From the NCBI GenBank assembly GCA_041650895.1, contig JBAZKF010000001.1:17685-81684 (forward strand): a stretch of 64,000 nt of DNA. Reading direction: 5' to 3'. This stretch comes from Patescibacteria group bacterium. Its GTDB lineage: Bacteria > Patescibacteriota > Patescibacteriia > 2-01-FULL-39-33. The notes beneath the pieces were generated by a model. That model saw only the letters and a list, made by a program, of their open reading frames with translations, was not told the DNA's origin and searched no databases. Positions 20,983 through 64,000 of the stretch are shown here, in pieces (position 1 is the first letter of the stretch; the number at the start of each line of letters is the position of its first letter). The translations under genes and the position numbers were made by a program.

Positions 20983-21657
20983 CTATTTTTTATCCTTGTC
21001 TTCATTAGCGGTTGCAGTTTCGCCTTCGGCAGGAACAGTTTCGCCTTCGGCAGGAACAGTTTCGCCTTCGGCAGGAACAGCCGGAGTTTCTTCCACTTCA
21101 ACTTTCGGTCGAGCCACATTAGCTATAGCATCGTCAGGATGATGATGTAGAACTTCCAGGGTTGCCGGGATTTTTAGGTCGGCTAAGGTGATGACATCGT
21201 CAAAAGTATTCAAAGGTGTGATATCAACTACGATTTCATGGATCAAATCAGTCGGTAAACAGTGCACTTCCAATTCGGAAACATTATGCACTAATACTCC
21301 GGCGTCTTCCTTAACGGCGCGGGATTCGCCGGTGAATGTTAGAGGAATGGTGGCGTGCATCTTTTCTTTCATATTGATCTGATGCAAGTCGGCATGGGTA
21401 ATGCGTCCTTTGACCGGTTCAAATTGGACTTCGGAAATAATCGTTTTGATCGGCGCTCCGCCGTCAATACTTAAGTCAATAATGGTGCTCTCGCCAGCTT
21501 CTTTCAATACCTTTTCAAATTCAATATAATTGAATTCTAGATTCTGATTGGTTTGGCCGTGGCCGTAGATTACCGCCGGGACAGAGCCTTGGGCTCTTAG
21601 TGCTTGGACTTTTTTGCCCAATTCTTTACGGGTTTTAGCTTTTAGATTCAATGTCAT
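20983..21657 (-). CDS. rplY: 50S ribosomal protein L25/general stress protein Ctc with C-terminal PAEGETV repeats
   Basis: MTLNLKAKTRKELGKKVQALRAQGSVPAVIYGHGQTNQNLEF L25 N-terminus. Confidence 0.85.
   Translation of the reverse strand: MTLNLKAKTRKELGKKVQALRAQGSVPAVIYGHGQTNQNLEFNYIEFEKVLKEAGESTIIDLSIDGGAPIKTIISEVQFEPVKGRITHADLHQINMKEKMHATIPLTFTGESRAVKEDAGVLVHNVSELEVHCLPTDLIHEIVVDITPLNTFDDVITLADLKIPATLEVLHHHPDDAIANVARPKVEVEETPAVPAEGETVPAEGETVPAEGETATANEDKDKK
21015..21077. repeat. 3 x 21-bp perfect tandem repeat inside the rplY coding region
   Basis: CAGTTTCGCCTTCGGCAGGAA x3, encoding (V)PAEGET x3. Confidence 0.8.
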
Positions 21658-29487: not shown

Positions 29488-29569
29488 ATTTGATATGTCG
29501 TAGATATTTGAATTAGTACGCGTTAGTTTTTTTATTTGAGTTAAGACAAAACAAAAATCACGTCCATAG

Positions 29570-29640
29570 CTCGGGGACAGGGGCTCGAACCCCGATTAAC
29601 GGCTTCAAAGGCCGCTGTCCTACCATTAGACGATCCCCGA
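29570..29640 (-). tRNA. tRNA-Gln (anticodon UUG)
   Basis: cloverleaf folded by hand: U1-A72 acceptor, D-arm GTCT/GGAC, anticodon loop CUUUGAA, T-loop TTCGAGC; 71 nt, no encoded CCA. Confidence 0.8.
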
Positions 29641-29712
29641 GTTATAGACGCGATTTTTCATTAACGCCTTATCTGGTTTTAATTATTTGCTTCGGGGCAA
29701 AGCCCCTGTCCA
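29623..29712. repeat. 90-bp direct repeat copy A (tRNA-Gln leader plus first 18 nt of the tRNA)
   Basis: one mismatch versus copy B; contains hairpin GGGGC-AAA-GCCCC. Confidence 0.8.
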
Positions 29713-29806
29713 GGGTTGGCGTCCAATCTGCCACTGGCAGATTGTCCGACGCTCGACTGCGTCTACCGATTGGTCTCGCTTCCAACCAGTCGCAGATTAC
29801 TGCGAC

Positions 29807-29896
29807 CCATTAGACGACCCCCGAGTTATAGACGCGATTTTTCATTAACGCCTTATCTGGTTTTAATTATTTGCTTCGGGGCAAAGCCCCTGTCCA
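29807..29896. repeat. 90-bp direct repeat copy B, heading a 94-nt structured non-tRNA insert
   Basis: same leader plus TCGGGGGTCGTCTAATGG, then perfect hairpins GTCGCAG-TAAT-CTGCGAC and CAATCTGC-CAGTG-GCAGATTG instead of a tRNA body. Confidence 0.8.
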
Positions 29897-52871: not shown

Positions 52872-53243
52872 TTAGCGACTGATTGGCAGGAATCCCAGCG
52901 ATCCCCAATGATCGCGTTCGAGGGAGCGATCAAACGTCAATCCGTCGGAGCCGAAGTGGCCAATAGAAACGCGATCGTAGTTTCCGCCATAAGAGACTGT
53001 CGGCGTTGCAGGCGGAATCAAATCGGGTTGATTGAAATGAGCGCTGAGCAGCTCGTCGAGCGTGGCCAGCCGATAACCCCACCACTTGGAAAGGATGGAG
53101 ATTCGTCTGAAATTCGCGCCGCGCGCCGCTTGGAAGAAGGCCAATTCGCCTGCACCTTGCGGGCGGTAAGCCTTTTGCCGCAGCACTTTGCCGCGCAAAT
53201 AGGCCACGATAACCCACAAATAATCCAGAATAGTCTGTTTCAT
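52872..53243 (-). CDS. hypothetical protein
   Basis: 123 aa; AGGAGAG Shine-Dalgarno 7 nt before the ATG; lies in a locally GC-rich patch with overlapping alternative ORFs. Confidence 0.5.
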   Translation of the reverse strand: MKQTILDYLWVIVAYLRGKVLRQKAYRPQGAGELAFFQAARGANFRRISILSKWWGYRLATLDELLSAHFNQPDLIPPATPTVSYGGNYDRVSIGHFGSDGLTFDRSLERDHWGSLGFLPISR

Positions 53244-53257
53244 GTCGTATCTCTCCT

Positions 53258-53779
53258 TTATTGGATTTCGTTGATGGCTTTAGTGAGCGAATCGCTGTCT
53301 TTTGCGTAGCTGACGCGTTGCGCCGTTTCAAAAAGTTTGAATATACCATCACAGAAGTTTCCGCGATGAGTATTCTGATAGAGGGCAATCATCTTTTGGA
53401 TAACGATCATGAGCGCCCGCGCCTTCTTGGAATCTTTCGATTCATCCAAGATATGGTCAGTTCTGAGCTCTTCCTCGAATCTCATCTCGCCCTTGCGAGT
53501 ATCGGAGAGATAGTATATGGATACTCTGACGTTTTCATTCTTGTAATCCTTCGGTTCGACGACGATTCCCTCGATTTCCCAAATCGTTGCGGTCGGATGC
53601 CGCCTTCTGGCGGAAACAATCTTGACGGTAATATCATACGCGTCATGGGTGTGGATATAGTCGGGCGTATGAAATTCTACTGTCCGCTCACCCAGCTCAG
53701 TATCGAAAAGGGCAAGCATGAGATCGAGTTTTGATGGACCGCCGTCCACCAGGTGTGTTTCTTCTTTTCTTTGTGTCAT
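53258..53779 (-). CDS. hypothetical protein
   Basis: 173 aa; AAGGAG Shine-Dalgarno before the ATG. Confidence 0.5.
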   Translation of the reverse strand: MTQRKEETHLVDGGPSKLDLMLALFDTELGERTVEFHTPDYIHTHDAYDITVKIVSARRRHPTATIWEIEGIVVEPKDYKNENVRVSIYYLSDTRKGEMRFEEELRTDHILDESKDSKKARALMIVIQKMIALYQNTHRGNFCDGIFKLFETAQRVSYAKDSDSLTKAINEIQ

Positions 53780-54036
53780 ACGACACTCCTTTCAATGTGC
53801 TGCTGCGCATTAGCCGAGGAACGCGCACAACCTCCTTATTCCCCGCCATTCAAGCAAGGAAACGACTTAGCCATACAGCTAAGAATTACTATATATTAGC
53901 ATATAGACATTATTTTGTCAAGTATTTTATCCACAATTAATCGAAATATTATGTATATTTACCTAAAATTAAACAAAAAAATGCCAGTAATTATTGGCAT
54001 TTTTATCGCAAATATTAATAATTCTATCTTTTCTTA

Positions 54037-54342
54037 CTATTTCTGCTTTTCCTGGTATTCTAACACTTTTTCCATCGGAGAAAGGCCGCCCAAAGCCATA
54101 TGAGGGAAGTAATTCCAAGCGTCAGTTATTGTTTCTAAAATATTACTTAATTCCGAGACATCACCGCCCCGGTCGAACCTAGCAATAATCGTCGACATAT
54201 CATCATTATCTTCTTCTTGATAAATGGCATCAAGAATATCTTCCAGTGCAAAGTCGCTCTCGGTTTCTGCAAGCAAATCAATAATGTCTTGTTGGATTGC
54301 TTCGCCTTCAGATAGGATTTGTTGTTGGGAAAGGGGTTGCAT
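54037..54342 (-). CDS. hypothetical acidic protein
   Basis: 101 aa, D/E-rich. Confidence 0.4.
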   Translation of the reverse strand: MQPLSQQQILSEGEAIQQDIIDLLAETESDFALEDILDAIYQEEDNDDMSTIIARFDRGGDVSELSNILETITDAWNYFPHMALGGLSPMEKVLEYQEKQK

Positions 54343-54603
54343 AATGATTTATTATAAAATATATACCACTTGAAAATGAAAAAGATTTTACGCCTGAAGA
54401 TTTTGCTTGGTATAATATGACAATAATAATTGCTGATAATAAAAAACATGACATCTCAAATGATGAGTTGAAGAACAGAGTCAAAGATTTCCTTTTATTT
54501 GCAATAAGATAATATTGAATACTAAAAATACCACGGCAAAACCGTGGTATTTTTGAAGCTAAATAATTGAGGGGACTCAGTCATTTGAATTAGCGTGTAT
54601 TGG

Positions 54604-54750
54604 CTGGAGGTTTTTAATAAAATCCGAACCGAATTTCAGAAAAGCTTGCCCTGAGCGAAGTCGAATGGGTCATAATCGGTCGGGCGGAACCTGCCTGCCG
54701 GCAAACAGGCGAAACATTTGGACGACTGAGGCGGAATTGCAATTTCCAAT
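54604..54750 (+). repeat. ~150-bp island repeat element R1
   Basis: about 90 nt near-identical to R2 (AAATCCGAACCGAATTTCAGAAAAGCTTGCCCTGAGCGAAGTCGAATGGGTCATAA...), shared 3' end GAAACATYTGGACGRCTGAGGCGRAATTGCAATTTCCAAT containing palindrome GAAATTGCAATTTC. Confidence 0.75.
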
Positions 54751-54775
54751 CTTTTAGTGATATTAATAATAGAAT

Positions 54776-55525
54776 CTAGAAATGTTCATTCGGTTTTTCT
54801 CTCAATTCATTCTTAATCCCATATTCGGGATGCTTCTTTATCCAGTCTGAAATGTCAGTCCATTTAAGGCCATGAAAACCAAATTGACCATTCCATTTGG
54901 CACCGTATTCTTTATTTTTTTCAAAACTGAATTTGTGCGCTAATTTAACTGGAGCGAATTTTATGCCTAAGTTTTCTAAATATTTACGTTTAATGACAGA
55001 AATAATCCAATCTTCATTTTCCGCATATTTGTGGCTTGGTGAATCTTCAATATTAATACTTGGATCATTTTGCAATATTTCTAGCAGTTTCTTGCTTCGC
55101 AGACTAAAACCGCCATTGCCAACAACCAACTTATCTTTTACCCATAATGGTGCACCAATATAATCGTATTTCAAATATTCATCATCCCAAGCAGTGGAAT
55201 TCAAAATAAAACCGTCATATTGAATAATCAAAACAAAATCAGTCTTTATATAATTATTCAACTCCTTGAGAATGAATTGCGAGTATTTTTTAATCGATTC
55301 TACGGGGTTGATTTTGATGACATTTTTATTATCGGAAGAAATTGATGATAATAATTTAATATCGGCAAATTCAAAATCTTTGCAACAAATTTCTGCGGCT
55401 TTTATAAGTCGATCAATATCAACACAGTCAAGACCAAACAGTGTTACATTTTTTAGTTTTTTCATTTCTATGGATTGATAAAATGTTTTTGAGTTCTGAA
55501 AATTGTAATTAGCTAACACTGACAC
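54776..55525 (-). CDS. hypothetical protein (GTG start at 55525; alternative ATG at 55465 giving MKKLKNVTLFGLDC...)
   Basis: 249-aa ORF in cassette between R1 and R2. Confidence 0.5.
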   Translation of the reverse strand: MSVLANYNFQNSKTFYQSIEMKKLKNVTLFGLDCVDIDRLIKAAEICCKDFEFADIKLLSSISSDNKNVIKINPVESIKKYSQFILKELNNYIKTDFVLIIQYDGFILNSTAWDDEYLKYDYIGAPLWVKDKLVVGNGGFSLRSKKLLEILQNDPSINIEDSPSHKYAENEDWIISVIKRKYLENLGIKFAPVKLAHKFSFEKNKEYGAKWNGQFGFHGLKWTDISDWIKKHPEYGIKNELREKPNEHF

Positions 55526-55588
55526 GGTCTCATAATAGTTATCTAAAAAATTATTGCCCCATCACGCCACTCACTATAGCTTTTGTAA

Positions 55589-56065
55589 TCATTTTTTAAT
55601 TGAATGCTTATCGGAAAATTTAGGGTTTGCAATGAATTCAGAAGTATCCGTATTGATAAATCCGATGATGTTTTCTGGAGAAATAACATTACTATCTTCC
55701 GTTTTAGAAAAAATATGTTCACTTGATGCCTTGATTGATCTTTCACGTGCTGAATATCCTCCAAAATCAGAAGAGTCGAATCCTTTGGGTACTGCAATTA
55801 GAATAATAATTGTTCTGCCACCATAATCCCAACCATCTAACTTGTGTAGCAAAGAATCTTGATTTTCTGGAATTCTACAGGCGATATCATGTATGGCGTT
55901 CCATTTGGTTCGAAGTCCTTTTTCAAGAATACTATCAGCTATTTCTCGATTTGAAACTCCATGACCCCAAATATCAACTGATTGTTGATATGTTTCCAAT
56001 GTTTTTAACAAATGGGTGTGTCGACTTTCAGAAGATTTTTTTTCAAACTTGTTCATAAATCTCAA
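55589..56065 (-). CDS. hypothetical protein
   Basis: 158-aa ORF preceded by upstream-element copy 2. Confidence 0.5.
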   Translation of the reverse strand: MRFMNKFEKKSSESRHTHLLKTLETYQQSVDIWGHGVSNREIADSILEKGLRTKWNAIHDIACRIPENQDSLLHKLDGWDYGGRTIIILIAVPKGFDSSDFGGYSARERSIKASSEHIFSKTEDSNVISPENIIGFINTDTSEFIANPKFSDKHSIKK

Positions 56066-56111
56066 GTTTATTTTACTATCTTGTTGTTAAAATATCAAAC
56101 AGTTCTAACGT

Positions 56112-56164
56112 CCACATTTCGGTATACAAAAATACCCCTAAAATAGGGGCATTTTGTCGCATCT
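56112..56164 (-). promoter_or_regulatory. conserved upstream element copy 2
   Basis: CACATTTCGGTATACAAAAATACCCCTAAAATAGGGGCATTTTGTCGCATCTG; hairpin CCCCTAAAATAGGGG. Confidence 0.5.
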
Positions 56165-56318
56165 GGAGGTCTTTAATCAAATCCGAACCGAATTTCAGAA
56201 AAGCTTGCCCTGAGCGAAGTCGAATGGGTCATAACCGGTCGGGCGGAATTCCCCCCCAAACCCCTCCTTCCGCCCGACCGAAACATCTGGACGGCTGAGG
56301 CGAAATTGCAATTTCCAA
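56162..56318 (+). repeat. ~150-bp island repeat element R2
   Basis: contains a perfect 12-bp hairpin GGTCGGGCGGAA-(TTCCCCCCCAAACCCCTCC loop region)-TTCCGCCCGACC. Confidence 0.75.
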
Positions 56319-56338
56319 TTTTTCTTTGGCGGCATTAA

Positions 56339-56773
56339 TTATATAATTTTATCAACCCACAGAACAGTGCCTTCTCTTTTAAATCCATATCTTTCGATAA
56401 ACTTAGAAAATAACTCCTGATCTTCGGCATTCACACAAAGCATAATATAAGTATATCCAAGATCTTTAACTTGCTTCAATCCTTCCTCTGTTAATTTTGC
56501 GGCCACTCCCAATCCGCGAGCGGATGGTGTCACGTAAAGATTTTCCCAAGTAATTTTCTTTGTTGGTATGTGAGCGGAATAAAAAGAAAAGCCAATAATT
56601 TCATTTTTTGTTTTTGCCACTAACAGAACATCACTAGGACTTTGACACCATTTTTTTAATTGTTCTTTACTCCAAAAAATTCCACTAGCACTAGCAAATT
56701 CTTTCTGTAAAGCACCTAGTTTATAAATCTCATCAATGTCCGTAATATTCATTCTAGATATTTGAAAATCCAT
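56339..56773 (-). CDS. GNAT family N-acetyltransferase
   Basis: acetyl-CoA binding motif region ...ARGLGVAAKLTEEGLKQVKDLGY...; 4 nt after the cyclodipeptide synthase gene. Confidence 0.8.
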   Translation of the reverse strand: MDFQISRMNITDIDEIYKLGALQKEFASASGIFWSKEQLKKWCQSPSDVLLVAKTKNEIIGFSFYSAHIPTKKITWENLYVTPSARGLGVAAKLTEEGLKQVKDLGYTYIMLCVNAEDQELFSKFIERYGFKREGTVLWVDKII

Positions 56774-56776
56774 ATA

Positions 56777-57478
56777 TTATTCGATATCGGCTATGCCTGT
56801 TTTATTTATAATTCTTAATTTATTCCTTAAACCATTATACTCATTACTTTTAATAATTTTTACTACTAATTCATCAAATTTACCTAATCCCGGATACAAA
56901 ATAACTGAATACAATTCACCACGATTAATAATCGAAACTCCATTCAAAAATAATGGCAATTCTTGTAGGACATAAAGAGCCACTGACTCGGCTCGATCTT
57001 TTGAAATAGTGCGTCCTCGTATTTTTAGCATTTCGTTAGAAATTTCCATTACCGAATTATAAAAAGCCTTTTGTTCAGAAAATTCCCTCATTAATACCTC
57101 TCGTTGTTTAACAAATTTTGGCGTTAAAGCATCATCATAGTTGGCGATAACAACCTTCTTTTGATCTTTTGCGGGCAATCTTGAGACGATTACTTCGACT
57201 TCTTGTCTTTTCTCATCTTCCATTTCGAAAGCCTTTTTTAATGATTGTGCTCTGCTTAAATTATCAATATACCTTAAATTAGAAACCTGAAGTCTCCCTG
57301 GGATTAAAATTAACAAGGATTTTTTAGTATGTATGAGGCCAAAATCAATAAGTTTTTCAAGATTATTTTTCGTGAACCATTTATTACCAAAACTTAAACC
57401 TATCCAAAGATTATATCTTTTTTTAAAGATATAATCTTTGGGAATTAATAATGTTTCTTTTATTTGAATTATTTCCAT
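56777..57478 (-). CDS. tRNA-dependent cyclodipeptide synthase (CDPS), XYP-type
   Basis: IGLSFGNKWF (catalytic Ser in the G-x-S-x-GN-x-x-F motif, compare AlbC IGISAGNSYF), LYVLQELPLF (AlbC NYVLAEAPLF; Tyr/Glu catalytic pair), SVILYPG (Y-P); about 233 aa as expected. Confidence 0.75.
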   Translation of the reverse strand: MEIIQIKETLLIPKDYIFKKRYNLWIGLSFGNKWFTKNNLEKLIDFGLIHTKKSLLILIPGRLQVSNLRYIDNLSRAQSLKKAFEMEDEKRQEVEVIVSRLPAKDQKKVVIANYDDALTPKFVKQREVLMREFSEQKAFYNSVMEISNEMLKIRGRTISKDRAESVALYVLQELPLFLNGVSIINRGELYSVILYPGLGKFDELVVKIIKSNEYNGLRNKLRIINKTGIADIE

Positions 57479-57514
57479 ATACGATTAATCTTATATGATC
57501 ATACCAAAATTATT

Positions 57515-57739
57515 TTATTCACAATAATAAAATACGCCACCATATTGATTTTTTTCTTGAAAGCTTAGGCTATCATAATCTTCAACACAGCTTCTAAATT
57601 TATCGTATTTATCTTCAGATTCATAATAATTATCTGACCACTCCTCAGCAGTCATACTTTCATATTTACCAATACTACAACCACTTAAAAACAGGAGAAA
57701 TAGTAATGACATAAATACAATGTAATATTTTTTTATCAT
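57515..57739 (-). CDS. small lipoprotein
   Basis: 74 aa; signal peptide with lipobox LSGC; acidic, 4 additional Cys. Confidence 0.5.
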   Translation of the reverse strand: MIKKYYIVFMSLLFLLFLSGCSIGKYESMTAEEWSDNYYESEDKYDKFRSCVEDYDSLSFQEKNQYGGVFYYCE

Positions 57740-57789
57740 AACAAATATACATTTTATTTTAGATTCAAACTAATATTATAAAATTAACT

Positions 57790-59604
57790 TTATTTAATCC
57801 CAGCCACTTTTTTTTCTTCGTCTGTCATTAGATGCGCGGGATTAATAGACTCCCACCAATAATTATTAAGACCTCTTTTTTGTATCGTTGTGATGTATTC
57901 AATTAATTTTAGTCTTACCTCAGTTTCTTGTAAATTCATTAATCCTGCAAGCTGTATACGAATATTTTTATCAAATAGAATTTTTTTTACGAATGGCATA
58001 ATTCTCTCTCCATAATATCTGCCAAAATCAGCCCATAAAGGTTCCCCATTATGCTCGGACAGTACAACAAGTAGGAAATTGGCCTGAAATTGAAAATTTT
58101 CAATTTTTCCATCCATTTTTGGTACTAATTCAATAAGCCAATCTTGATTTTTTAAATATTCCCTAATGTATTCATTCACTTTAGTTGAATGACCAGTCAG
58201 GGCACGAGTATAATGAAAATGATTATCTTCTAAAAAAGACATCGGTGGCTGATCAAAGTAATTTGGATTATCGAACTTAGTTTCAAGTAAAATTTTGAGT
58301 GGCGCATAATTATCTCTGGCTATACAAATAGTAGCTATAATGTATAAGATTTCAACAATTATAACTTCCGGAACCGCAATCAGAGAAATTAGACCGGATT
58401 TATTATTTGTAAGTTCAACTAAAGCTGTCAGATATTCACAGTATATTTTTATCTGATTTTTGTTGCCATATACTGAAATTGTAGCACCTAAATATATATA
58501 CTGATAACTACTCGCTTCCATGCGCGAAATAGCCTCTGGTATGCGATCCACATCCTGACCAATTTCCTGAAAAATTATTTCCCATTCCTTTTTTATTTTA
58601 GTGATTAATTTGTGGCACAATCTCTCAAAATTTAATATATTAATAGTTTCCACACTAGACCCGGAAGAACCAACAACAAAATTAATTGTTTCCTGCAAAA
58701 GTTTGTTTTTTTCATCCATCGTTAAATCAATCACTGGCACAGAAAAAATAGCATTTTGTAATTCTGGCGTTTTTGGTATCTCAATGGTTTCGGGCTTTAA
58801 ATGCAACCTCTTTTTAAACACTGGGAGAGTGAGATTACCCTCTAATTTACCTAACATGGTTGGTGTTTGAGTGTGTTTCCATTTGTCCCTAGCACGAGAG
58901 CTTACACCTTCTGCGATTGGACTAAAAATGTCTGTAGCTGAAAAATATTCACTAGGACGATTTTTTTGGAGTTCATCAAGTACATAATATGTAAATAAAC
59001 CATTTTTAAGTTCAGGATCTTCGATTGAAAGTTCATCATCTTTACTGGCAGTAAAAATCATACTACCATTACCAATTACTGTATTTGAAAATGATTTAAT
59101 ATTTTTAAATCCCTTGGTATTGGGGATTGGGTAATTTTTGGCATTTTTACTTACTGACCCACTAAAACAAGAATCAATAAAAATTAAATTTACTTTTGAT
59201 TTTAGGGATGTGAAAATATTTTTTATATCCTCTACTGATAAACAAGTATTTACAATATCATGAGTTGCATCATACGGCACTAAAAAGCTAAGTCCTGAAT
59301 TAATATTATTAGGATCATCAACTAATGCTCCGTGACCGGAATAGAAAAAGAAGAAAACGTCATCTGACTCGATATTATCCAGTAATTCTTTTCCTAACGC
59401 AGTCTTGATTTCTGAAAGAGTCGCCTCTTCATCAACTAAAAGTTTATTATACCCAATATTGCTAATATTTTGTTGAAATAATGAGAAAAACTCTGTTGCA
59501 TCTTTTTCTGCAAACGCTAGATTTGTAATTTGATTCTTATGCTTAGAAATTCCAATCGCAACAATATGATGTTTCATGAAATTAATTATTTTAGTAATTC
59601 CCAC
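57790..59604 (-). CDS. caspase-like (peptidase C14) domain protein with ~350-aa unknown C-terminal domain
   Basis: HIVAIGISKH...FFFYSGHGA (His) ... LIFIDSCFSG (Cys) dyad; GTG start with GGGAG Shine-Dalgarno, alternative ATG at 59577. Confidence 0.7.
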   Translation of the reverse strand: MGITKIINFMKHHIVAIGISKHKNQITNLAFAEKDATEFFSLFQQNISNIGYNKLLVDEEATLSEIKTALGKELLDNIESDDVFFFFYSGHGALVDDPNNINSGLSFLVPYDATHDIVNTCLSVEDIKNIFTSLKSKVNLIFIDSCFSGSVSKNAKNYPIPNTKGFKNIKSFSNTVIGNGSMIFTASKDDELSIEDPELKNGLFTYYVLDELQKNRPSEYFSATDIFSPIAEGVSSRARDKWKHTQTPTMLGKLEGNLTLPVFKKRLHLKPETIEIPKTPELQNAIFSVPVIDLTMDEKNKLLQETINFVVGSSGSSVETINILNFERLCHKLITKIKKEWEIIFQEIGQDVDRIPEAISRMEASSYQYIYLGATISVYGNKNQIKIYCEYLTALVELTNNKSGLISLIAVPEVIIVEILYIIATICIARDNYAPLKILLETKFDNPNYFDQPPMSFLEDNHFHYTRALTGHSTKVNEYIREYLKNQDWLIELVPKMDGKIENFQFQANFLLVVLSEHNGEPLWADFGRYYGERIMPFVKKILFDKNIRIQLAGLMNLQETEVRLKLIEYITTIQKRGLNNYWWESINPAHLMTDEEKKVAGIK

Positions 59605-59792
59605 GCTTCAACTCCCAAGGCATTGGCTAATTTATATAAATTTTCTAATGTAGGGTTTACCCGGCCACTTTCCACCCGGCAGATATAGGCGCGGTCAATT
59701 CTGCTTGAACGAAAAACGTCGCCTTGAGTTAGGCCTTTTTCCTCTCGTATCCGTTTAAAATTAACGGCAAGTTTTTTGCTTAATTTATGCAT
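59586..59792 (-). CDS. XRE-family helix-turn-helix transcriptional regulator
   Basis: 68 aa; IREEKGLTQGDVFRSSRIDRAYICRVESGRVNPTLENLYKLANAL. Confidence 0.75.
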   Translation of the reverse strand: MHKLSKKLAVNFKRIREEKGLTQGDVFRSSRIDRAYICRVESGRVNPTLENLYKLANALGVEAWELLK

Positions 59793-59951
59793 AGTTATTC
59801 ACAGATATTTTACCAATTATTGTATATCTTAACAATATTGTTGTATAATACAATAGAGAAGTGGGGGTTTGTGTTAAAAAAAAGAAAAAGTTTGATTTTG
59901 TCCAAAATATAGTTCGAGCCGATTTTTTTAATCTGGTTCTTTGGCGGTTTT

Positions 59952-60069
59952 ATTCCGCCTCAGCCGTCCAGATGTTTCGGTCGGGCGGAAGGAGGGGTTT
60001 GGGGGGGGAATTCCGCCTGACCGATCATAATTTTTGTTGAAATTCGGTTCGGATTTGTTCATAAACACC
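59952..60069 (-). repeat. island repeat element R3 (inverted orientation relative to R1/R2)
   Basis: reverse complement shares AAATCCGAACCGAATTTCA and the GG(T)CRGGCGGAATTCCCC...CCTCCTTCCGCCCGACCGAAACATCTGGACGGCTGAGGCGGAAT hairpin region with R2. Confidence 0.7.
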
Positions 60070-60144
60070 CAGCCAGTTTCGCTTTTCATTTTTTAAAACA
60101 GAATTCCAACCGTTTTTTGGCTTAAATTCAAATTTTTTGCCTTG
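60070..60144. repeat. 75-bp perfect inverted repeat, left copy (flanks the recombinase gene)
   Basis: exact reverse complement of 61563-61637, checked base by base. Confidence 0.85.
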
Positions 60145-60206
60145 GTTCCGATTACTATCGGAACGCCAGAATCAAACTTTTTCTTTTTCTTTAATTCAAT
60201 ACAAAT

Positions 60207-61694
60207 ATGAAATACTTTCTTTACGCCCGCAAGTCGACAGACGAAGAGGAGCGTCAAGTCCTTTCAATTGAAGCCCAGCTCGCAGAGCTGAAGGAGTTAG
60301 CCGCCAAAGAAAAATTGGAAATTGCTGACTCGCTCTGCGAGTCTAAAACCGCCAAAGAACCAGGCCGAAAAATTTTCGGCGAAATGCTCGCTCGGATTGA
60401 AAAAGGTGAAGCCGACGGAATTTTAGCGTGGCACCCAGATAGATTGGCCAGAAATAGCGTTGATGGTGGGAAGATTATCTACATGGTGGATATTGGCCAG
60501 ATTAAAACGCTGAAATTCCCGACTTTTTGGTTTGAGAATACTCCGCAAGGTAAATTCATGCTCAATATCGCTTTCGGCCAGAGCAAATACTATATTGATA
60601 ATTTAAGCGAAAATGTTAAGCGCGGATTCAGACAAAAGTTAAGGCGTGGCGAATATCCCAACAAAGCGCCTATTGGCTATCTTAATGACCGCATGGCTAA
60701 AACCGTGCTTATTGATCCTCTGCGCGCCAAGCTGATAATCAAGATGTTTGAGATGTACAGCACGGGAGAATTTTCGCTTAAATTTCTAAAAGATAAGTTT
60801 TGCGATATCGGTCTGACCAGTAAGCGAGGAAAAATCCTGACTGTCGGCATGATTTCTAATATATTGAGCAATCCCTTTTATTGCGGAGTATTCAAGTTTA
60901 ATGGCGAAATATACCAAGGCAAGTACGAGCCGATTATTTCCAAGAAGCTTTTTGATGAAGTTCAGGCGGTAATGCGGGATCGCGGCCGGCCGCTCGGGCA
61001 AGACAAGCACGACTACGCATTTACAGGACTAATGAAATGCAAATGCGGCGCCTGCATTACCGCTGAACGGCAAAAAGGCCATATCTATTATCGCTGTACG
61101 AAAAAGCTCGGAGCCTGCGATGAAAAGTATATCCGCGAAGAAAACTTGCTGGAGCAATTCTATGGCCTTTTTCAAAAAGCTTCTTTGTCTGATGACTGGA
61201 TTGACAAGATGCTCGCCAAACTGGACGAGGAACAGAAAAGCGATATGAAGTCATCTATTGGTCTGATTGATGAGGTTAAAGCGCAAATTGGTGGCCTAGA
61301 GAGCAAGTTAGACAAGTTATTAGATGACCGATTAGAAGGGTTATTGGACAAGGACGACTATTTGCGCAAGAAAGAACAGCTCATCAATCAAAAAATCACT
61401 TTTGAGGACAAAATCCAGTCAATCAGGCAAACAGGAAATAATTGGCTCGAACCGATGAGAGAATTCCTTTTCGCCAATAAACAAACCAAAAAAGTCGCCA
61501 ATGGCGGCGACCTTCTAGAGATTAGAGCATTTATTAAAAAAATCGGCTCGAACTTTATTTTGCAAGGCAAAAAATTTGAATTTAAGCCAAAAAACGGTTG
61601 GAATTCTGTTTTAAAAAATGAAAAGCGAAACTGGCTGCGGGACAGGGACTCGAACCCCGATACCACCCTCCAGAGGGGCGTGTCCTACCATTAG
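60207..61694 (+). CDS. large serine recombinase (resolvase/invertase catalytic domain plus recombinase and zinc-ribbon/coiled-coil domains)
   Basis: N-terminal YARKSTDEEERQVLSIEAQ (catalytic Ser region), RLARN, CxxC...CxxC zinc ribbon; 3' end runs through the right IR and antisense into the tRNA. Confidence 0.85.
   Translation: MKYFLYARKSTDEEERQVLSIEAQLAELKELAAKEKLEIADSLCESKTAKEPGRKIFGEMLARIEKGEADGILAWHPDRLARNSVDGGKIIYMVDIGQIKTLKFPTFWFENTPQGKFMLNIAFGQSKYYIDNLSENVKRGFRQKLRRGEYPNKAPIGYLNDRMAKTVLIDPLRAKLIIKMFEMYSTGEFSLKFLKDKFCDIGLTSKRGKILTVGMISNILSNPFYCGVFKFNGEIYQGKYEPIISKKLFDEVQAVMRDRGRPLGQDKHDYAFTGLMKCKCGACITAERQKGHIYYRCTKKLGACDEKYIREENLLEQFYGLFQKASLSDDWIDKMLAKLDEEQKSDMKSSIGLIDEVKAQIGGLESKLDKLLDDRLEGLLDKDDYLRKKEQLINQKITFEDKIQSIRQTGNNWLEPMREFLFANKQTKKVANGGDLLEIRAFIKKIGSNFILQGKKFEFKPKNGWNSVLKNEKRNWLRDRDSNPDTTLQRGVSYH
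61563..61637. repeat. 75-bp perfect inverted repeat, right copy, abutting the tRNA-Gln 3' end
   Basis: CAAGGCAAAAAATTTGAATTTAAGCCAAAAAACGGTTGGAATTCTGTTTTAAAAAATGAAAAGCGAAACTGGCTG. Confidence 0.85.
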
Positions 61695-61705
61695 ACGATC
61701 CCGCA
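61635..61705 (-). tRNA. tRNA-Gln (anticodon CUG)
   Basis: hand-folded cloverleaf; U1-A72; anticodon loop CUCUGGA; T-loop TTCGAGT; about 80% identical to the tRNA-Gln(UUG) at 29.6 kb. Confidence 0.8.
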
Positions 61706-61761
61706 TTATTTTTTCTATTTAGCAGTATAGCACATAAATCAGGATAAATCAAGGCGTAGTC

Positions 61762-61790
61762 TTGACAAAATTAAACATCTGTGATAAAAT
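61762..61790 (+). promoter_or_regulatory. promoter for rnpB
   Basis: TTGACA-N17-(TG)-TAAAAT, about 10 nt upstream of the predicted RNase P RNA 5' end. Confidence 0.4.
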
Positions 61791-61799
61791 TATAACACT

Positions 61800-62150
61800 G
61801 AGTATGACGGATAGTTACTCTTTGGCCTTAGGCCGAAGAGAGGAAAGTCCGAACACCCTTTTCGGCGCAAGCCGGAATGTCGCGGTAATGGGTAACGCCC
61901 ACCCGGACAGTCGTAAGGCTGGCCGAGGACCAGTTCCACAGAGACAATACTAACGAGATGCGCAAGTATTTCGCGAAAGGTGAAAAGTGTAGCGAAGTAT
62001 TAAGTTGAGAGTGAGATATCTCCTCAAATTAATGCCACCCTACTCAACTCCCAGCGATGGGCAGTTGTGGTAAACTCTACCTGGTGCAACCCCGTTTCGG
62101 GGGCTTGATCATGCCGGTAACGGCAATGACAGACAGATGACTATCGTTTT
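61800..62150 (+). ncRNA. rnpB: RNase P RNA (bacterial type A-like)
   Basis: universally conserved GAGGAAAGTCCG(AAC)... P4 strand, GGTAACGCC, terminal P1 pairing GGATAGT/ACTATC, followed by T-run. Confidence 0.7.
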
Positions 62151-62206
62151 TTACGGCCGCAAGGTTAGTAAAAAATACAGAATTCGGCTTATAGTCATAT
62201 TCAGTT

Positions 62207-62239
62207 AAAAAATACTTCGCTGCTGCGAGGTATTTTTTT
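62207..62239. terminator. bidirectional intrinsic terminator between rnpB and rnhA
   Basis: A6-TACTTCGC-TGCT-GCGAGGTA-T7. Confidence 0.6.
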
Positions 62240-62243
62240 ATAT

Positions 62244-62639
62244 TTATTCGTGTCTATCAATCGCTTCGTTGACTAGTTTGTCCGCTAATTTGTTTTGCTC
62301 GCGATAGATGTGTTTGAAAGTGACTCTTTTGAATTTGGTGCTTAGGTTATAGACTTTAATGAACAGTACTCCCAGATCCTTATCTTTGACTCGGTATTCG
62401 CGATTTAATTGCTTTACCACCAGTTCGGAATCCAAAAGGCATTCAGCCTCGGTTACCCCGTTTTCTAAGGCATGCTCCAGAGCCAAAATTAAAGCGCGAT
62501 ACTCCGCCTGGTTATTGGTGGCTTCGCCGATATAGCGTTTAAGTTCCAGTTGTTTCTCGCCGATTTTTATTACGGCTCCGATACCGGCCGGACCGGGATT
62601 GCCCCGCGCTCCGCCATCAGAATAAATTATTGCTTTCAT
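62244..62639 (-). CDS. rnhA: ribonuclease HI
   Basis: MKAIIYSDGGARGNPGPAGIG ... catalytic DEDD residues. Confidence 0.85.
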   Translation of the reverse strand: MKAIIYSDGGARGNPGPAGIGAVIKIGEKQLELKRYIGEATNNQAEYRALILALEHALENGVTEAECLLDSELVVKQLNREYRVKDKDLGVLFIKVYNLSTKFKRVTFKHIYREQNKLADKLVNEAIDRHE

Positions 62640-62787
62640 ATTGACTTTTTCAGTATAAAGAGTTATGTTTCTATTATTGTTCTTTAATTATAACTTCAAA
62701 TAGCGTAATCAACAACCTGAAAGGAGAAAGCCATGATCGTTAAATCCGATCCGATAAGAATTTTCACACCGCCCATATGAGGCGGTT

Positions 62788-64000
62788 TTATTTTTCACTT
62801 ATTTTTAAATCTTCAATTTTCAATTGCAATTCTTTATTGCCGTTCCATTCATTTACGCCAAGCTCAAAAACTATATCAATCTTGTCCCCCGCTTTGAGTC
62901 GCGCGCACCATTCGCCAAAAGAAAAGCCAATTAACTTGTGTAAGTTGGATAAATCCCCGTTTTGCGACACTAACACCTTAAGATGTTTGCCGTCGACTCC
63001 GACCGTCTGCACTTGCTCCACCGACAAACCGAAAGCGGCAAATAGCGGTTGTTCGTTATCTTCGCCGAACGGTTCAAATTTACTGACTTCCTCTAATAAT
63101 TGCCAATCGATTTGGGATAGTTTTATTTCCGTATCAATCAACAAAGTCGGAGTCAGATCAAGCCCGATTAATTTTCCTTTCGCCAATTGTCGGATTTTCT
63201 CTTTAAATTTTTGAAAATTATCCTCGCCAATAATCGTCAAACCGCAAGCCTGGGGATGTCCGCCATATTTGGCGAGCAAGTCATGGCATTGCTTAAGCGC
63301 CTCGGTAATGTCAAATTCCTCAATGCTTCTTCCAGATGCCAAATACTTGTCGCCTTCTTTGGTGAATACCAGGGCCGGCCGGCGATGCTTGTCAGCCAAA
63401 CGTCCGGCTACCAGCCCGACTACTCCTGCCGCCCAACCCTCGCCTTCAGCGATTAGAATATGTTCTTCTTCGGCGGTTTTAGCTATTTGAATGAAGGCGG
63501 CTTCTAGAATCTTACTGGTGATCTGCTGCCTTTCCTTGTTGTTATTTTCAAGAAATTGCGCCCATTTTTCCGCCTCTTCCTCCGATTCGGCAGTCAATAG
63601 ATTAAATGCCACGGAAGCGTGGCCAACTCGTCCGGCGGCGTTGATTCGCGGTACAATCCGCCAACCTAAGTATTCGGTGTCTAAGCTGTTGTGGCGATTA
63701 TTAACTAATTCCATCATTTTTGCCAAACCCAAGTTGCGGGTCTTCTCCATTACCATCAAGCCGTATTTGACTATAATCCTATTTTCGCCCAGTAGCGGTA
63801 CAATGTCGCCGACCGTAGCGATTGCCGCCAAATCCAACAGCCATTTTTCGTAACCCTCAGGCAATTGAATCGGACTATTATTCTCCTGCTGATATTTAAT
63901 GATGGCCTGTATGAATTTAAAAGCTACGCCAGCGCCGCATAACGGGCTTTCGGGATAACCGCAAGATTTGACCTGAGGGTCAATAATTGCCAACGCCTGA
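62788..64000 (-). CDS. recJ: single-stranded-DNA-specific exonuclease RecJ (C-terminal part; N-terminus lies beyond window end)
   Basis: DHHA1 domain GGGH motif (YGGHPQACG) and RecJ OB-fold region; ORF open at 64000. Confidence 0.8.
   Translation of the reverse strand, partial: QALAIIDPQVKSCGYPESPLCGAGVAFKFIQAIIKYQQENNSPIQLPEGYEKWLLDLAAIATVGDIVPLLGENRIIVKYGLMVMEKTRNLGLAKMMELVNNRHNSLDTEYLGWRIVPRINAAGRVGHASVAFNLLTAESEEEAEKWAQFLENNNKERQQITSKILEAAFIQIAKTAEEEHILIAEGEGWAAGVVGLVAGRLADKHRRPALVFTKEGDKYLASGRSIEEFDITEALKQCHDLLAKYGGHPQACGLTIIGEDNFQKFKEKIRQLAKGKLIGLDLTPTLLIDTEIKLSQIDWQLLEEVSKFEPFGEDNEQPLFAAFGLSVEQVQTVGVDGKHLKVLVSQNGDLSNLHKLIGFSFGEWCARLKAGDKIDIVFELGVNEWNGNKELQLKIEDLKISEK

Follow-up and report, generated by a model that had tools for sequence, protein, structure and literature searches.

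In the 64,000-nt stretch of DNA analysed here (the window), a serine recombinase gene lies between two perfect inverted repeats, and the end of its reading frame runs through one of them into a tRNA gene on the opposite strand. What are these repeats, and why does the element carry them? A repeat search confirmed that 60070–60144 is the exact reverse complement of 61563–61637 (75 nt, 100%, with the arms 1418 nt apart). This pair is the longest inverted repeat found across the whole 64-kb window. A perfect match of 75 nt is not expected to arise by chance in 64 kb. As had been described in the initial annotation, the outer partners of the arms differ (R3, 59953–60069, adjoins the left arm and the tRNA the right arm), and the outer ends share a ...TGGCTG junction, which corresponds to the attachment-site (att) crossover region discussed below. 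The right arm and the tRNA's 3′ end overlap by 6 nt (TGGCTG), CCA included. Codon 453 of the recombinase begins at 61563. Therefore, the last 43 residues and the stop codon are read via the right arm and then via antisense tRNA-Gln(ctg), and the proposal that the C-terminus is encoded by the repeat and the antisense tRNA was correct. In an Rfam scan of 53000–64000, only tRNA and RNase P RNA were detected.

The recombinase (495 aa) contains Resolvase, Recombinase and Zn_ribbon_recom domains. The catalytic resolvase domain (PF00239) matched residues 4–149 with E = 8e-20, and the C-terminal domains PF07508 and PF13408 (zinc ribbon) matched with E = 9e-14 and E = 5e-7, respectively. Among the 33 family members aligned, Y6, R8, K9 and S10 (the catalytic Ser) are invariant, as are C278, C280, C297 and C304 of the zinc ribbon. 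The comparison with solved structures gave a single match, to the catalytic domain (E = 1e-7), and the protein is distant from all of them. Because the catalytic, recombinase and zinc-ribbon domains are all present, we assign the protein to the large serine recombinases (LSRs).

The window was taken from a 314,752-bp contig assembled by MEGAHIT with k = 141. A collapsed repeat is impossible because the 75-nt repeat is shorter than this k-mer. The window layout was also observed in four more contigs from other samples or assemblies (L001, L002, L004 and L087), which likewise contradicts an assembly artefact of the kind that the initial annotation had considered. Moreover, the layout is not restricted to close relatives. 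In about 130 of 166 related loci (recombinases 47–95% identical), the last 45–159 nt of the gene recur inverted upstream, usually perfectly, and this copy is located 23–370 nt upstream of the start codon in nearly all loci with enough upstream sequence. The layout occurs in genome and metagenome contigs, well over a hundred in number and mostly of uncultured Patescibacteria, that were produced by different assemblers; they include a complete genome and contigs of 0.7–1.8 Mb. In L087, the recombinase is 95% identical to that of the window and the cargo is completely different. In five loci with recombinases that are 91–100% identical, the final ~25 nt of the P arm exist in four variants, each mirrored in both arms. 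The arm sequence is particular to each genome, so the two arms undergo concerted evolution. Differences between the arms of a pair are least frequent close to the crossover core (15, 11, 13, 26 and 41 per fifth, from the core to the inner end), and older, displaced members of tandem arrays have less perfect arms. These comparisons indicate that the inverted repeat is old, conserved and kept homogeneous, and is not a fresh event. The perfect arms had been taken as a sign of very recent duplication or inversion. The 100% identity of the window arms would suit a one-off event or an artefact; however, the same architecture at ~130 loci from different assemblers, a repeat shorter than the assembly k-mer and arms that co-vary between genomes make such an origin extremely improbable. 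A phage origin was also considered and is not supported: a scan of a viral collection gave only 11 relatives, five of which, at 34–35% identity, do not have the repeat.

We are highly confident that one attachment-site segment is present twice and that each 75-nt arm is the P arm of one copy, and in the anatomy and att assignments that follow from this (Table 1). It is well supported that the element occupies 56163–61637 and is a small integrative element, inserted by the LSR into the 3′ end of tRNA-Gln(CTG). The same grade applies to three site assignments: attR consists of the right arm (the gene-side P arm), the core TGGCTG and the tRNA; the left arm and R3 together form an intact inverted attP of ~190 nt just upstream of the gene; and attL is R2, a direct copy of the internal P′ arm with a native C-terminal tail. 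Because attP lies inside the 3′ end of its own recombinase gene, integration fuses the gene to the antisense tRNA. Because a whole attP is also present as an inverted copy upstream of the gene, the integrated layout becomes B - core - [P′ e′ cargo x′ y′ f′ p′] - core - [p h X gene Y P] - core - tRNA. This layout consists of two arcs, each of which is bounded by a near-perfect inverted repeat.

Table 1 Features of the window around the recombinase gene (positions are those of the window; nt, nucleotides of the recombinase gene where so stated).
Feature	Position	Strand	Description	Basis or detail
R1	54601–54755	+	Older attL-type site: TGGCTG core and P′ arm, then decayed e′ block	Direct repeat with R2 (86 nt at 97% and 45 nt at 91%); TGGCTG core common to attR; 54739–54755 is a partial inverted copy of gene nt 103–118
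Remnant array member	54601–56162		R1 is its boundary; without recombinase gene	
R2 (attL of tRNA-proximal element)	56163–56307	+	CTG core and P′1 arm, direct; inverted repeat with P′3 arm	56251–56306 is 98% complementary to 59952–60007; translation gives native-type tail LEVFNQIRTEFQKSLP and stop
e′ block	56308–56333	+	Inverted copy of gene nt 94–119 (block E), right after P′1 arm	26 nt, 100% complementary to 60300–60325
Cargo arc	56339–59792	-	GNAT acetyltransferase, cyclodipeptide synthase (CDPS), small lipoprotein-like ORF, Peptidase_C14 (caspase-like), Xre-type HTH	ORFs and precomputed Pfam families of the source contig
x′ block	59874–59900	+	Inverted copy of 5′ leader segment X (-40 to -13 before the start codon); left edge of conserved module	93% complementary to 60167–60194; L087 homology begins here
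y′ block	59903–59932	+	Inverted copy of gene nt 1327–1356 (block Y, codons IKKIGSNFIL)	30 nt, 97%
f′ block	59933–59952	+	Inverted copy of gene nt 138–157 (block F, codons KTAKEP)	20 nt, 100%
R3	59953–60069	-	P′3 arm of internal inverted attP; recombinase frame runs past the core into GVYEQIRTEFQQKL and stop	TCCGAAC 19–23 nt from repeat end; GC-rich hairpin
IR-L	60070–60144	-	P arm and 6-nt core of internal inverted attP	100% reverse complement of 61563–61637
Hairpin h	60145–60164	+	Right after IR-L	GTTCCGAT TACT ATCGGAAC
X	60167–60194	+	Leader segment complementary to x′	
Recombinase gene	60207–61694	+	495 aa	Catalytic S10; zinc-ribbon Cys278/280/297/304
Block E	60300–60325	+	In coding sequence, just 5′ of hairpin A	
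Hairpin A, block F, hairpin B	60327–60380	+	In coding sequence	60327–60343, 60344–60363 and 60364–60380, respectively
Y	61533–61562	+	Complementary to y′; directly 5′ of right arm	Invariant GSN codons GGC TCG AAC
IR-R	61563–61637	+	P arm and core of attR	
tRNA-Gln(CTG)	61632–61705	-	Integration target and B′ half-site	CCA end restored by element

Several observations across the family bear on these assignments. In 82 loci, the gene-side arm ends 2–15 nt (5–7 nt in most) inside a convergent tRNA, and many isotypes are represented. In every locus checked, the frame of the left copy continues into a stop-terminated tail of native type. The P′ arm contains the motif YGARY/CGAAC, which is the same as that in the antisense tRNA T-loop, and the strong motif is confined to the P′ and B′ half-sites. 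Protein-level selection on the conserved "IRT" tail was considered and rejected because the R codon is almost always CGA (33 of 36 loci) and the motif matches the tRNA T-loop. Measured from the repeat end, the CGAAC motif begins at 14 nt on the tRNA side, as compared with 19 nt on the left. This offset of +5, present in 45 of 65 loci, equals the shift of the zinc-ribbon motif between the attP and attB half-sites of serine integrases. The lengths of the P and P′ arms are anticorrelated (r = -0.82) and their sum is 190 ± 6.7 nt (n = 37); since the related loci share phylogeny, this correlation and the counts of loci overstate the number of independent observations.

A direct P′ copy of 85–116 nt was present 0.8–8 kb upstream in ~40 of 61 loci (those with at least 3 kb of upstream sequence), and in most it is 100% identical to the inverted copy. 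In the window, by contrast, the P′ arm of R2 is 80–98% identical to R3. When the direct P′ copy and the attR junction were compared in 32 tabulated loci, they had a core of 0–12 nt in common (3–11 nt in most; often ..TGGnnn) and nothing further left. Window attL and attR have only CTG in common, whereas R1 and attR have TGGCTG. Element sizes across the family are 2.4–10.9 kb. In tandem arrays, the reading frame of an older recombinase gene continues into the P′ arm that belongs to the tRNA-proximal element. Homologs in which the gene runs into a P′-type arm instead of a tRNA were considered as free circles, but this idea was dropped because L064 showed that such arms belong to a younger element next door in the array, as its attL. 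The circle junction is predicted to be ...GCGAAACTGGCTG joined to GAGGTCTTTAATC..., and the junction of the empty site ...TTTGTCGCATCTG joined to CGGGACAGGG... or ...GTGTATTGGCTG joined to CGGGACAGGG.... A search via flanking proteins found no empty site; another sample had the same island, with contigs breaking at the repeats. Among the related loci, there was no excised circle, and in no locus did a repeat span the whole ~190-nt attP.

The element boundaries bear directly on the suggestion of an IS-like transposon with the 75-bp inverted repeats as its termini, inserted between R3 and the tRNA. The unit 60070–61637 does possess perfect terminal inverted repeats and only the recombinase gene, and many family members are minimal (~2.5 kb). 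However, the arms are internal: the true ends of the element are attL and attR, with a short direct repeat of the tRNA 3′ end. Moreover, the left flank is always the cognate P′ arm and never unrelated DNA, and the cores at the two arm ends are inverted and do not form a target-site duplication. We therefore judge this explanation to be very improbable. The related proposal, that the locus is the inversion product of two att sites, is not supported because the left copy is a complete attP rather than a hybrid site.

Do the arms mediate inversion of the gene? In an invertible switch, the arms would recombine through the recombinase or RecA and flip 60145–61562, so that the gene would end by turns in a native C-terminus (into R3) and in the tRNA-antisense tail, or would change promoters; once flipped, it would be downstream of the tRNA promoter. 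The recombinase gene is indeed bracketed by perfect inverted repeats, like hix around hin, and the left copy offers the native-type tail mentioned above. We looked for flipped states, namely a tRNA at the upstream arm or blocks in direct orientation, and found only one candidate, L134. In this locus, a tRNA-Leu adjoins the upstream arm at the corresponding position and the gene is co-directional behind the tRNA, as a switch would predict; however, the P′3 arm and the blocks expected downstream in a flipped copy are missing. Thus, L134 is not a simple flip. In the other 82 tRNA-joined loci, the gene reads into the tRNA. A flipped cargo arc was found in none of 89 loci, although this arc is likewise bounded by perfect repeats. 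The essential absence of flipped forms among the assembled loci argues against a switch. In addition, the tail is conserved as DNA, judging from the CGA codon, and flipping leaves the x′, y′, f′ and e′ blocks unexplained. A switch, which the initial annotation had listed, is thus disfavoured, and we consider it quite improbable.

The x′, y′, f′ and e′ blocks lie next to the att arms and are inverted copies of segments of the recombinase gene or its leader. Inverted blocks at fixed gene coordinates of about -40, 140 and 1340 were found in ~32 (x′), ~38 (f′) and ~43 (y′) of 65 short-repeat loci, and the survey of related loci gave no block matches in direct orientation. The blocks abut closely. 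The gap is 0–3 nt between x′ and y′ (30 of 41 loci), 0–5 nt between y′ and f′ (40 of 41), 0–1 nt between Y and P (34 of 41) and 0–2 nt between P′ and e′ (24 of 35). A direct P′ copy followed by e′ occurs in more than 30 loci and holds in most short-repeat loci. The distance from E to F, which is occupied by hairpin A, is 15–21 nt in 30 of 35 loci. In other loci, the spacer from IR-L to X is either 0–5 nt or 15–25 nt; the longer spacers are mostly hairpin-like by eye, with a different sequence each time. We tried to derive the mosaic from the gene by deletion, by circular permutation or as what is left of a tandem copy, and none of these fits the block order. In the short-repeat subgroup, three helix groups (the att stems, X/E and F/Y) are mutually pseudoknotted, and their simultaneous formation would be topologically and sterically demanding.

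Hairpins A and B were analysed in an alignment of 73 sequences. Of the aligned cells, 94.6% are paired, as compared with 24–45% in slid controls. The hairpins covary: 135 cells are changed on both sides, and none of 500 shuffles was as high. G:U exceeds A:C (24 versus 8), and block F is displayed between the two hairpins. These features raise the possibility of control at the RNA level, in which a leader or small RNA (x′, y′, f′ and left arm) would pair with the recombinase mRNA at the ribosome-binding region, at codons 46–52 and at the 3′ end, and would silence read-through transcripts or tune translation. Consistent with this idea, f′ pairs with F in the minimum-energy fold of 59857–60400, and the start codon follows shortly after X. 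Detailed inspection of three long-repeat loci showed leader blocks nested with their targets, an arrangement that looks like a simple long-range mRNA hairpin. Furthermore, a GC-rich hairpin followed by a T-run on the + strand (~59970–60040), noticed by eye although the terminator scan did not flag it, could end a small RNA composed of x′y′f′. Other observations do not fit. The mismatches of arms and blocks have no wobble bias (39/37/30 in the arms and 18/26/25 in the blocks); therefore, copied DNA repeats fit as well as selected pairing. The P′1:p′3 pair and e′ lie at a distance of kilobases upstream, and the strand concerned is antisense to the cargo genes. No sigma-70-type promoter was predicted on the + strand upstream of the blocks or the gene, and both the outer limit of the repeat, at the crossover, and the half-site of attP type are properties of DNA. 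We consider RNA control to be improbable.

The random mismatch types would equally suit a functionless relic, that is, an ancestral inverted duplication of the gene 3′ end together with scraps of a second copy, kept alike by intrachromosomal gene conversion. The repeat boundaries are fixed within subgroups, as if conversion acts only inside pre-existing homology, and the less perfect arms of displaced array members point in the same direction. However, the blocks, at 20–30 nt, are at or below the usual length for RecA-dependent conversion, yet they track the synonymous changes of the recombinase gene. Gap-free junctions, and hairpins exactly at the junction corners, are not expected of random remnants. 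The layout has been retained, with invariant orientation, across recombinases down to ~47% identity, and the P′ half-site motif is conserved with correct spacing. Therefore, we give the relic explanation about as little weight as RNA control.

The explanation towards which we lean slightly, taken as a whole, is an integrative element that carries an inverted spare attP and uses it as a splint. Its parts differ in strength. The internal inverted attP probably acts as a working att-type site. From the sequence, we infer that the purpose of the layout may be single-strand foldback, a second att site or RNA control; that foldback is what the internal copy is for is a tentative proposal. On a single strand, the internal attP would pair with P of attR and P′ of attL together. 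X:x′, Y:y′, E:e′ and F:f′, with hairpins h and A, would close two stems of ~90 bp each with gap-free junctions. Folding would compact the element, bring together the short direct repeats of 6–11 nt at its ends and recreate a duplex attP. Such a splint might serve mobilisation via a single-stranded stage without a directionality factor. This stage may be replication-coupled looping-out or an ssDNA form, and the strand may be the lagging-strand template or a transferred or taken-up strand. That the whole element folds in this manner, so that a copy leaves or att is presented from ssDNA, is possible and somewhat unlikely. Arm identity may be kept by recombination-dependent homogenisation, which would be most efficient beside the crossover site. 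Serine recombinases require duplex sites and make double-strand breaks. If a single-strand attP in folded form recombined with a duplex attB, the chromosome ends left behind would be capped by hairpins, and so an ssDNA route of integration is not straightforward. Another point against the splint is that the blocks match their targets less well than the long arms match each other, including in loci with 100% identical arms.

A full-text literature search found no description of this layout. Its parts can be compared with known systems. The domain set (Resolvase, Recombinase and zinc ribbon), the catalytic Ser and four Cys, the short core and the hybrid attL and attR after integration resemble those of the large serine integrases (A118/LI, phiC31, Bxb1 and SPbeta), as does the location of the motif: in the published model, a P-type half-site has it 5 bp more distant from the crossover than a B-type half-site does. 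Unlike the integrases compared, attP is located here inside the integrase gene, and a second, inverted attP and complementary blocks are kept in the element. Moreover, the target half-site is the universal tRNA T-loop; hence, many tRNA isotypes are used.

The yeast 2-micron plasmid, in which the FRT sites of Flp lie inside 599-bp inverted repeats, offers another comparison. The predicted circular form of our element would similarly consist of two arcs split by long, perfect, target-bearing inverted repeats, with the recombinase gene carried on one arc. However, the plasmid is an autonomous replicon with a tyrosine recombinase, two equal isomers and an amplification function, whereas ours integrates, has a serine recombinase and gives no sign of isomers. 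In the invertases Hin/hix, Gin/gix, Cin and Pin, inverted repeats also bracket a recombinase gene. Invertases of the Hin/Gin type are small serine recombinases with a C-terminal HTH; they have ~26-bp sites as well as an enhancer, and their segments occur in either orientation side by side. By contrast, our family has a 495-aa LSR and repeats of 45–159 nt, and one orientation is essentially fixed among the assembled loci. Because the repeats lie within coding sequence, inversion would swap the C-terminus, as inversion of the Mu G segment does.

The splint has analogies elsewhere. CTX-phi attP and integron attC are folded single-strand substrates of tyrosine recombinases, which exchange single strands, and the inverted repeats and short direct repeats of Tn10/Tn5 promote RecA-independent precise excision. 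In these cases too, inverted repeats on one strand make a duplex site or join short end repeats; however, they depend on tyrosine recombinases or on pure replication slippage, whereas here the splint would be internal and four dispersed blocks would also pair. We know of no serine recombinase that uses a folded single-strand site, and to our knowledge a splint-type mode of mobilisation is not known for serine recombinases.

There is also a likeness in layout with the Dehalococcoides ssrA islands, which encode a CcrB-like serine integrase, DsiB (McMurdie et al. 2011, PMC3146451). According to the excerpts of that paper used here, the integrase gene always overlaps att at its 3′ end and reads into the target RNA gene or a neighbouring island, the islands form tandem arrays with short direct repeats as limits, and the targeted RNA is tRNA-like, with the site at or close to its T-loop region (PMC3146451). 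These properties have counterparts in our elements. The differences are that those excerpts report no inverted att copy or complementary blocks, that the target is ssrA as compared with tRNAs of many isotypes here, and that integration of the islands involves a module of six genes, one of which encodes a second small recombinase, DsiA (PMC3146451), whereas many of our elements are integrase-alone elements of 2.5–3 kb. In two minimal elements of ~2.5–2.8 kb that we inspected, there was no second recombinase-length ORF, no common second gene was evident among the small ORFs, and no candidate for a directionality factor was evident. The small ORFs in these two elements are membrane-like by eye.

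How integrase-only elements spread and leave without a directionality factor is a question to which this clade may offer a testable answer. The clade is widespread, mostly in Patescibacteria; its members read the universal tRNA T-loop, accept any left-hand target arm, form tandem arrays and surround an inverted spare attP with a self-complementary scaffold. If the splint explanation is true, it would represent a new mobilisation mode for serine-recombinase elements, without a directionality factor. Large serine integrases are valued in genome engineering because they are simple and one-directional, and the T-loop-reading half-site suggests that these integrases may have a very broad host and target range. 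Finally, as a consequence of the att architecture, many metagenomic contigs break just upstream of these recombinase genes, and the architecture itself is a sequence signature by which the boundaries of such elements can be located.

In the repeat search, the longest inverted repeat detected in the window was a pair of 75-nt arms, which are 100% complementary and lie 1418 nt apart. Thus, the exact repeat reported in the initial annotation was confirmed. The ORF between the arms encodes a 495-aa protein with Resolvase, Recombinase and zinc-ribbon domains, which clearly belongs to the large serine recombinase family. The right arm overlaps the 3′ end of tRNA-Gln(CTG) by 6 nt, including CCA. As had been noted from the sequence, the C-terminus of the recombinase is encoded by the repeat and the antisense strand of the tRNA: the last 43 codons and the stop codon are read through the right arm and then through the tRNA. 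The window derives from a 315-kb MEGAHIT contig (k = 141). Because this k exceeds the repeat length, the 75-nt repeat cannot be a collapse artefact, and the suspicion of an assembly artefact was not borne out.

Features of the window, with their positions
Feature	Position (nt)	Description
Tandem repeat	21015-21080	21-nt unit
Second tRNA-Gln	29569-29640	anticodon ttg, minus strand
Direct repeat	29623-29712 and 29807-29896	90 nt, 99% identity
R1	54601	boundary of the apparent remnant of an older array member
R2 (P′1)	56163-56307	attL of the window element
e′	56308-56333	inverted copy of gene nt 94-119, placed after attL
Cargo	56339-59792	GNAT acetyltransferase, cyclodipeptide synthase (CDPS), small lipoprotein-like ORF, ~600-aa Peptidase_C14 (caspase-like), Xre-type HTH
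x′	59874-59900	inverted copy of leader segment -40 to -13
y′	59903-59932	inverted copy of the 30 nt directly 5′ of the right arm
f′	59933-59952	inverted copy of gene nt 138-157
R3	59953-60069	P′ arm segment adjoining the left arm
Left arm	60070-60144	
Recombinase gene	60207-61694	
Right arm	61563-61637	
tRNA-Gln(CTG)	61632-61705	strand opposite to the recombinase ORF; followed by RNase P RNA

Homologs of the recombinase are very numerous (at least about 8,000 scored candidates), and Patescibacteria form the majority of those for which the source gives a name. Most of their C-termini end in ...W-x-x-x-DSNP..., which is the antisense translation of the tRNA T-arm. We examined 80 loci from genomes and 80 from metagenomes and scanned each for copies of the 3′ end of the gene. 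At nearly all loci with sufficient upstream sequence, the terminal 45-159 nt of the gene recur inverted, 23-370 nt before the start codon. Contigs frequently stop 100-300 nt before the gene, which would be expected from assemblies breaking at the repeats. In 82 loci, a convergent tRNA contains the end of the gene-side arm to a depth of a few nucleotides (mostly 5-7), and about half of the repeats at these loci are 100% identical. The tRNA isotypes targeted include Gln, Ser, Asn, Arg, Leu, Val, Phe, Trp, Tyr, Glu, Pro, Lys, Met and Ala. The repeat was absent from all five viral-contig relatives at 34-35% identity. In a set of five loci whose recombinases share 91-100% identity, the terminal ~25 nt of the arm occur in four versions, and in each of the five genomes both arms possess the same version. 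Therefore, the arms evolve in concert. The repeat is a family trait and not a recent accident; the recent duplication suggested initially is contradicted by the spread of the layout across the family and by the co-variation of the arms within each genome. Two family members were present in single genome bins (L040/L047, L049/L061, L045/L063 and L026/L048), and their tRNA partners differ where both were found (e.g. Leu-tag and Arg-gcg; Pro-ggg and Pro-cgg), which suggests spread within the genome.

On the minus strand of the left arm, the reading frame runs past the shared core into a short tail, x-L-x-x-I-R-T-x-F and a stop codon (GVYEQIRTEFQQKL and stop in the window). CGA encodes the R in 33 of 36 loci and, therefore, the conserved entity is a DNA motif, (T/C)CGAAC. 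The universal tRNA T-loop is G53-T-T-C-R-A58, and the motif is its antisense. On the tRNA side, the motif begins 14 nt past the repeat, as against 19 nt on the left side, and this offset of +5 was observed in 45 of 65 loci. In large serine integrases, the outer recognition motif of attP-type half-sites is shifted 5 bp outward as compared with attB-type half-sites. Accordingly, the right arm and the tRNA form attR (P-core-B′), and the left arm together with R3 forms an inverted attP that is complete (P-core-P′). In the P arm there is only a weak motif, ATTTCC, 6-11 nt ahead of TGG. The lengths of the P and P′ arms are anticorrelated (r = -0.82) with a sum of 190 ± 6.7 nt. A single attP segment of ~190 nt has been duplicated as an inverted copy, and the crossover point within it varies.

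In about 40 of the 61 loci with at least 3 kb of upstream sequence, the P′ arm recurs in direct orientation, 0.8-8 kb ahead of the inverted attP. This direct copy is 85-116 nt long and mostly 100% identical to the inverted P′ arm. On its left, only 0-12 nt (3-11 in most) of the 32 tabulated loci are common with the attR junction, often ..TGGnnn, which corresponds to the tRNA CCA end. The direct copy is thus an ordinary attL. The integrated layout is B-core-[P′ ... p′]-core-[p ... P]-core-tRNA, where p and p′ belong to the internal attP. An IS-like unit with terminal inverted repeats, considered initially, is contradicted, since the left flank is a P′ arm and the element ends are attL and attR. 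The elements are 2.4-10.9 kb long, many being ~2.5-3 kb, and in the two smallest inspected no second gene common to both was evident. They are ordinary attL/attR integrative elements, of the same kind as those reported for DsiB, the integrase of Dehalococcoides ssrA islands (PMC3146451). DsiB is a close precedent for gene-att overlap and arrays; in the passages searched, an inverted repeat is not mentioned.

Tandem arrays exist. For example, in locus L064 (8121-8711) only the 3′ part of a truncated older recombinase gene is left, and it runs into attL, the P′ arm of the element next to the tRNA. Newly arriving elements therefore appear to target attR of the previous element and thereby displace older copies from the tRNA. 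Such arrays explain homologs whose gene ends in a P′-type arm and not in a tRNA, and imply that specificity is not required of the left-hand target arm. In the window, 54601-56162 contains a DUF5672 gene and a 158-aa ORF without a recombinase, has att-type P′ arms at both bounds, and looks like a remnant of an older array member at the same tRNA. The cargo set of the window element might constitute a module for defence or for secondary metabolites. A perfect inverted match of 18 nt between the CDPS gene (57254-57271) and recombinase nt 384-401 (60590-60607) is AT-rich and may be due to chance.

The idea that the segment between the arms is an invertible switch is disfavoured by the orientation, which is 82:1 among tRNA-joined loci, and by the lack of flipped cargo arcs (0 of 89). 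In L134 (1-2100), the sole locus with a tRNA on the upstream arm, tRNA-Leu(tag) (191-274, + strand) abuts this arm at the equivalent position, and the recombinase gene lies directly downstream in the same orientation; on the other side, neither a P′3 arm (the type in R3) nor blocks were found. Therefore, the internal core can be a crossover point. Upstream of this tRNA is the C-terminal end of an ORF, read as a putative IS-type transposase. Arm-to-arm mismatches are few near the core and many at the inner end, and close relatives differ most in the core-proximal ~25 nt. Thus, homogenisation works best next to the crossover. When window 60045-60100 was compared with loci L087 and L001 (recombinases 91-95% identical), a stretch of ~45 nt spanning the crossover (~17 nt at the start of P′ and ~25 nt at the end of P) differed at about half of the positions, with ~97-99% identity in the module outside. 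From one element to another the att core region is hypervariable, but both arms of any one element carry it in identical form.

Short inverted blocks accompany the arms. The x′, y′ and f′ blocks are contiguous, to the left of the inverted attP. In the short-repeat subgroup (65 loci), blocks corresponding to positions ~-40, ~140 and ~1340 were found in ~32, ~38 and ~43 loci, none of them in direct orientation, and e′ adjoins the P′ copy in most loci where this copy was detected. As compared with L087 (95% identical recombinase), similarity is wholly lost leftward of x′; the conserved module starts exactly at x′. The segments adjoin one another exactly. The gap between x′ and y′ is 0-3 nt in 30 of 41 loci, that between y′ and f′ is 0-5 nt in 40 of 41, and that between Y and P is 0-1 nt in 34 of 41. 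Between P′ and e′ it is 0-2 nt in 24 of 35 loci, and between E and F, where hairpin A lies, it is 15-21 nt in 30 of 35. The spacer from the left arm to X is 0-5 nt or 15-25 nt, and the latter, judged by reading, is mostly a hairpin (h) of varying sequence. In the gene, F sits between two hairpins (94.6% paired versus 24-45% in slid controls) with strong covariation (135 double changes; G:U 24 versus A:C 8). If the blocks pair on one strand, they would form two junctions without unpaired linkers, J2 (p:P, h, X:x′, y′:Y) and J1 (P′1:p′3, e′:E, hairpin A, F:f′). The long-repeat subgroup (L016, L020, L043 and others; arms 120-159 nt, e.g. L020 9747-10001) has no x′y′f′ mosaic beyond attP. Instead, gene nt ~262-285 and ~355-375 recur as short inverted copies directly before the start codon, and an additional block reproduces a stretch close to the right arm. 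Detailed inspection of three of these loci placed the blocks between the left arm and the start codon, in full nesting with their targets, and the predicted pairing resembles a single long hairpin with interruptions.

RNA leader or antisense control of the recombinase explains part of these features, namely F with the hairpins on either side of it, X, and the nesting seen in the long-repeat subgroup. However, it leaves the P′1:p′3 pair, e′ and the crossover-defined boundary without account. A relic without function, maintained by gene conversion, is hard to reconcile with the junction geometry and with the 20-nt blocks, which follow synonymous changes of the gene. The anatomy, with the attP-type geometry of its internal copy, its junction-compatible layout and its fixed orientation, is solid and widespread. 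As its purpose, we tentatively propose a splint, although we rate it as somewhat less likely than not: the internal attP would pair with both element ends on a single strand and, together with the blocks, would compact the element, recreate a duplex attP and juxtapose the short direct repeats. Precise excision of Tn10 and Tn5 is promoted by inverted repeats, and the splint might aid replication-coupled looping-out or a single-stranded DNA stage. We prefer the splint because it alone covers the repeat, the blocks, their order, the gap-free adjacency, the corner hairpins and the fixed orientation together. However, serine recombinases cleave both strands of duplex DNA, the helix groups of the short-repeat subgroup are mutually pseudoknotted, the mismatch types in arms and blocks have no pairing-specific bias, and no intermediate was seen. 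A full-text literature search found no description of a conserved inverted whole-attP copy beside the gene or of a complementary block set, and we regard these two aspects as new.

Two further repeats are present in the window. The 90-nt direct repeat copies the 5′ part of tRNA-Gln(ttg) and its upstream region, and this region (29569-29896) may be the scar of another tRNA integration or excision. The tandem repeat consists of three perfect head-to-tail copies, in which a 24-nt match, CAGTTTCGCCTTCGGCAGGAACAG, repeats at 21-nt spacing.
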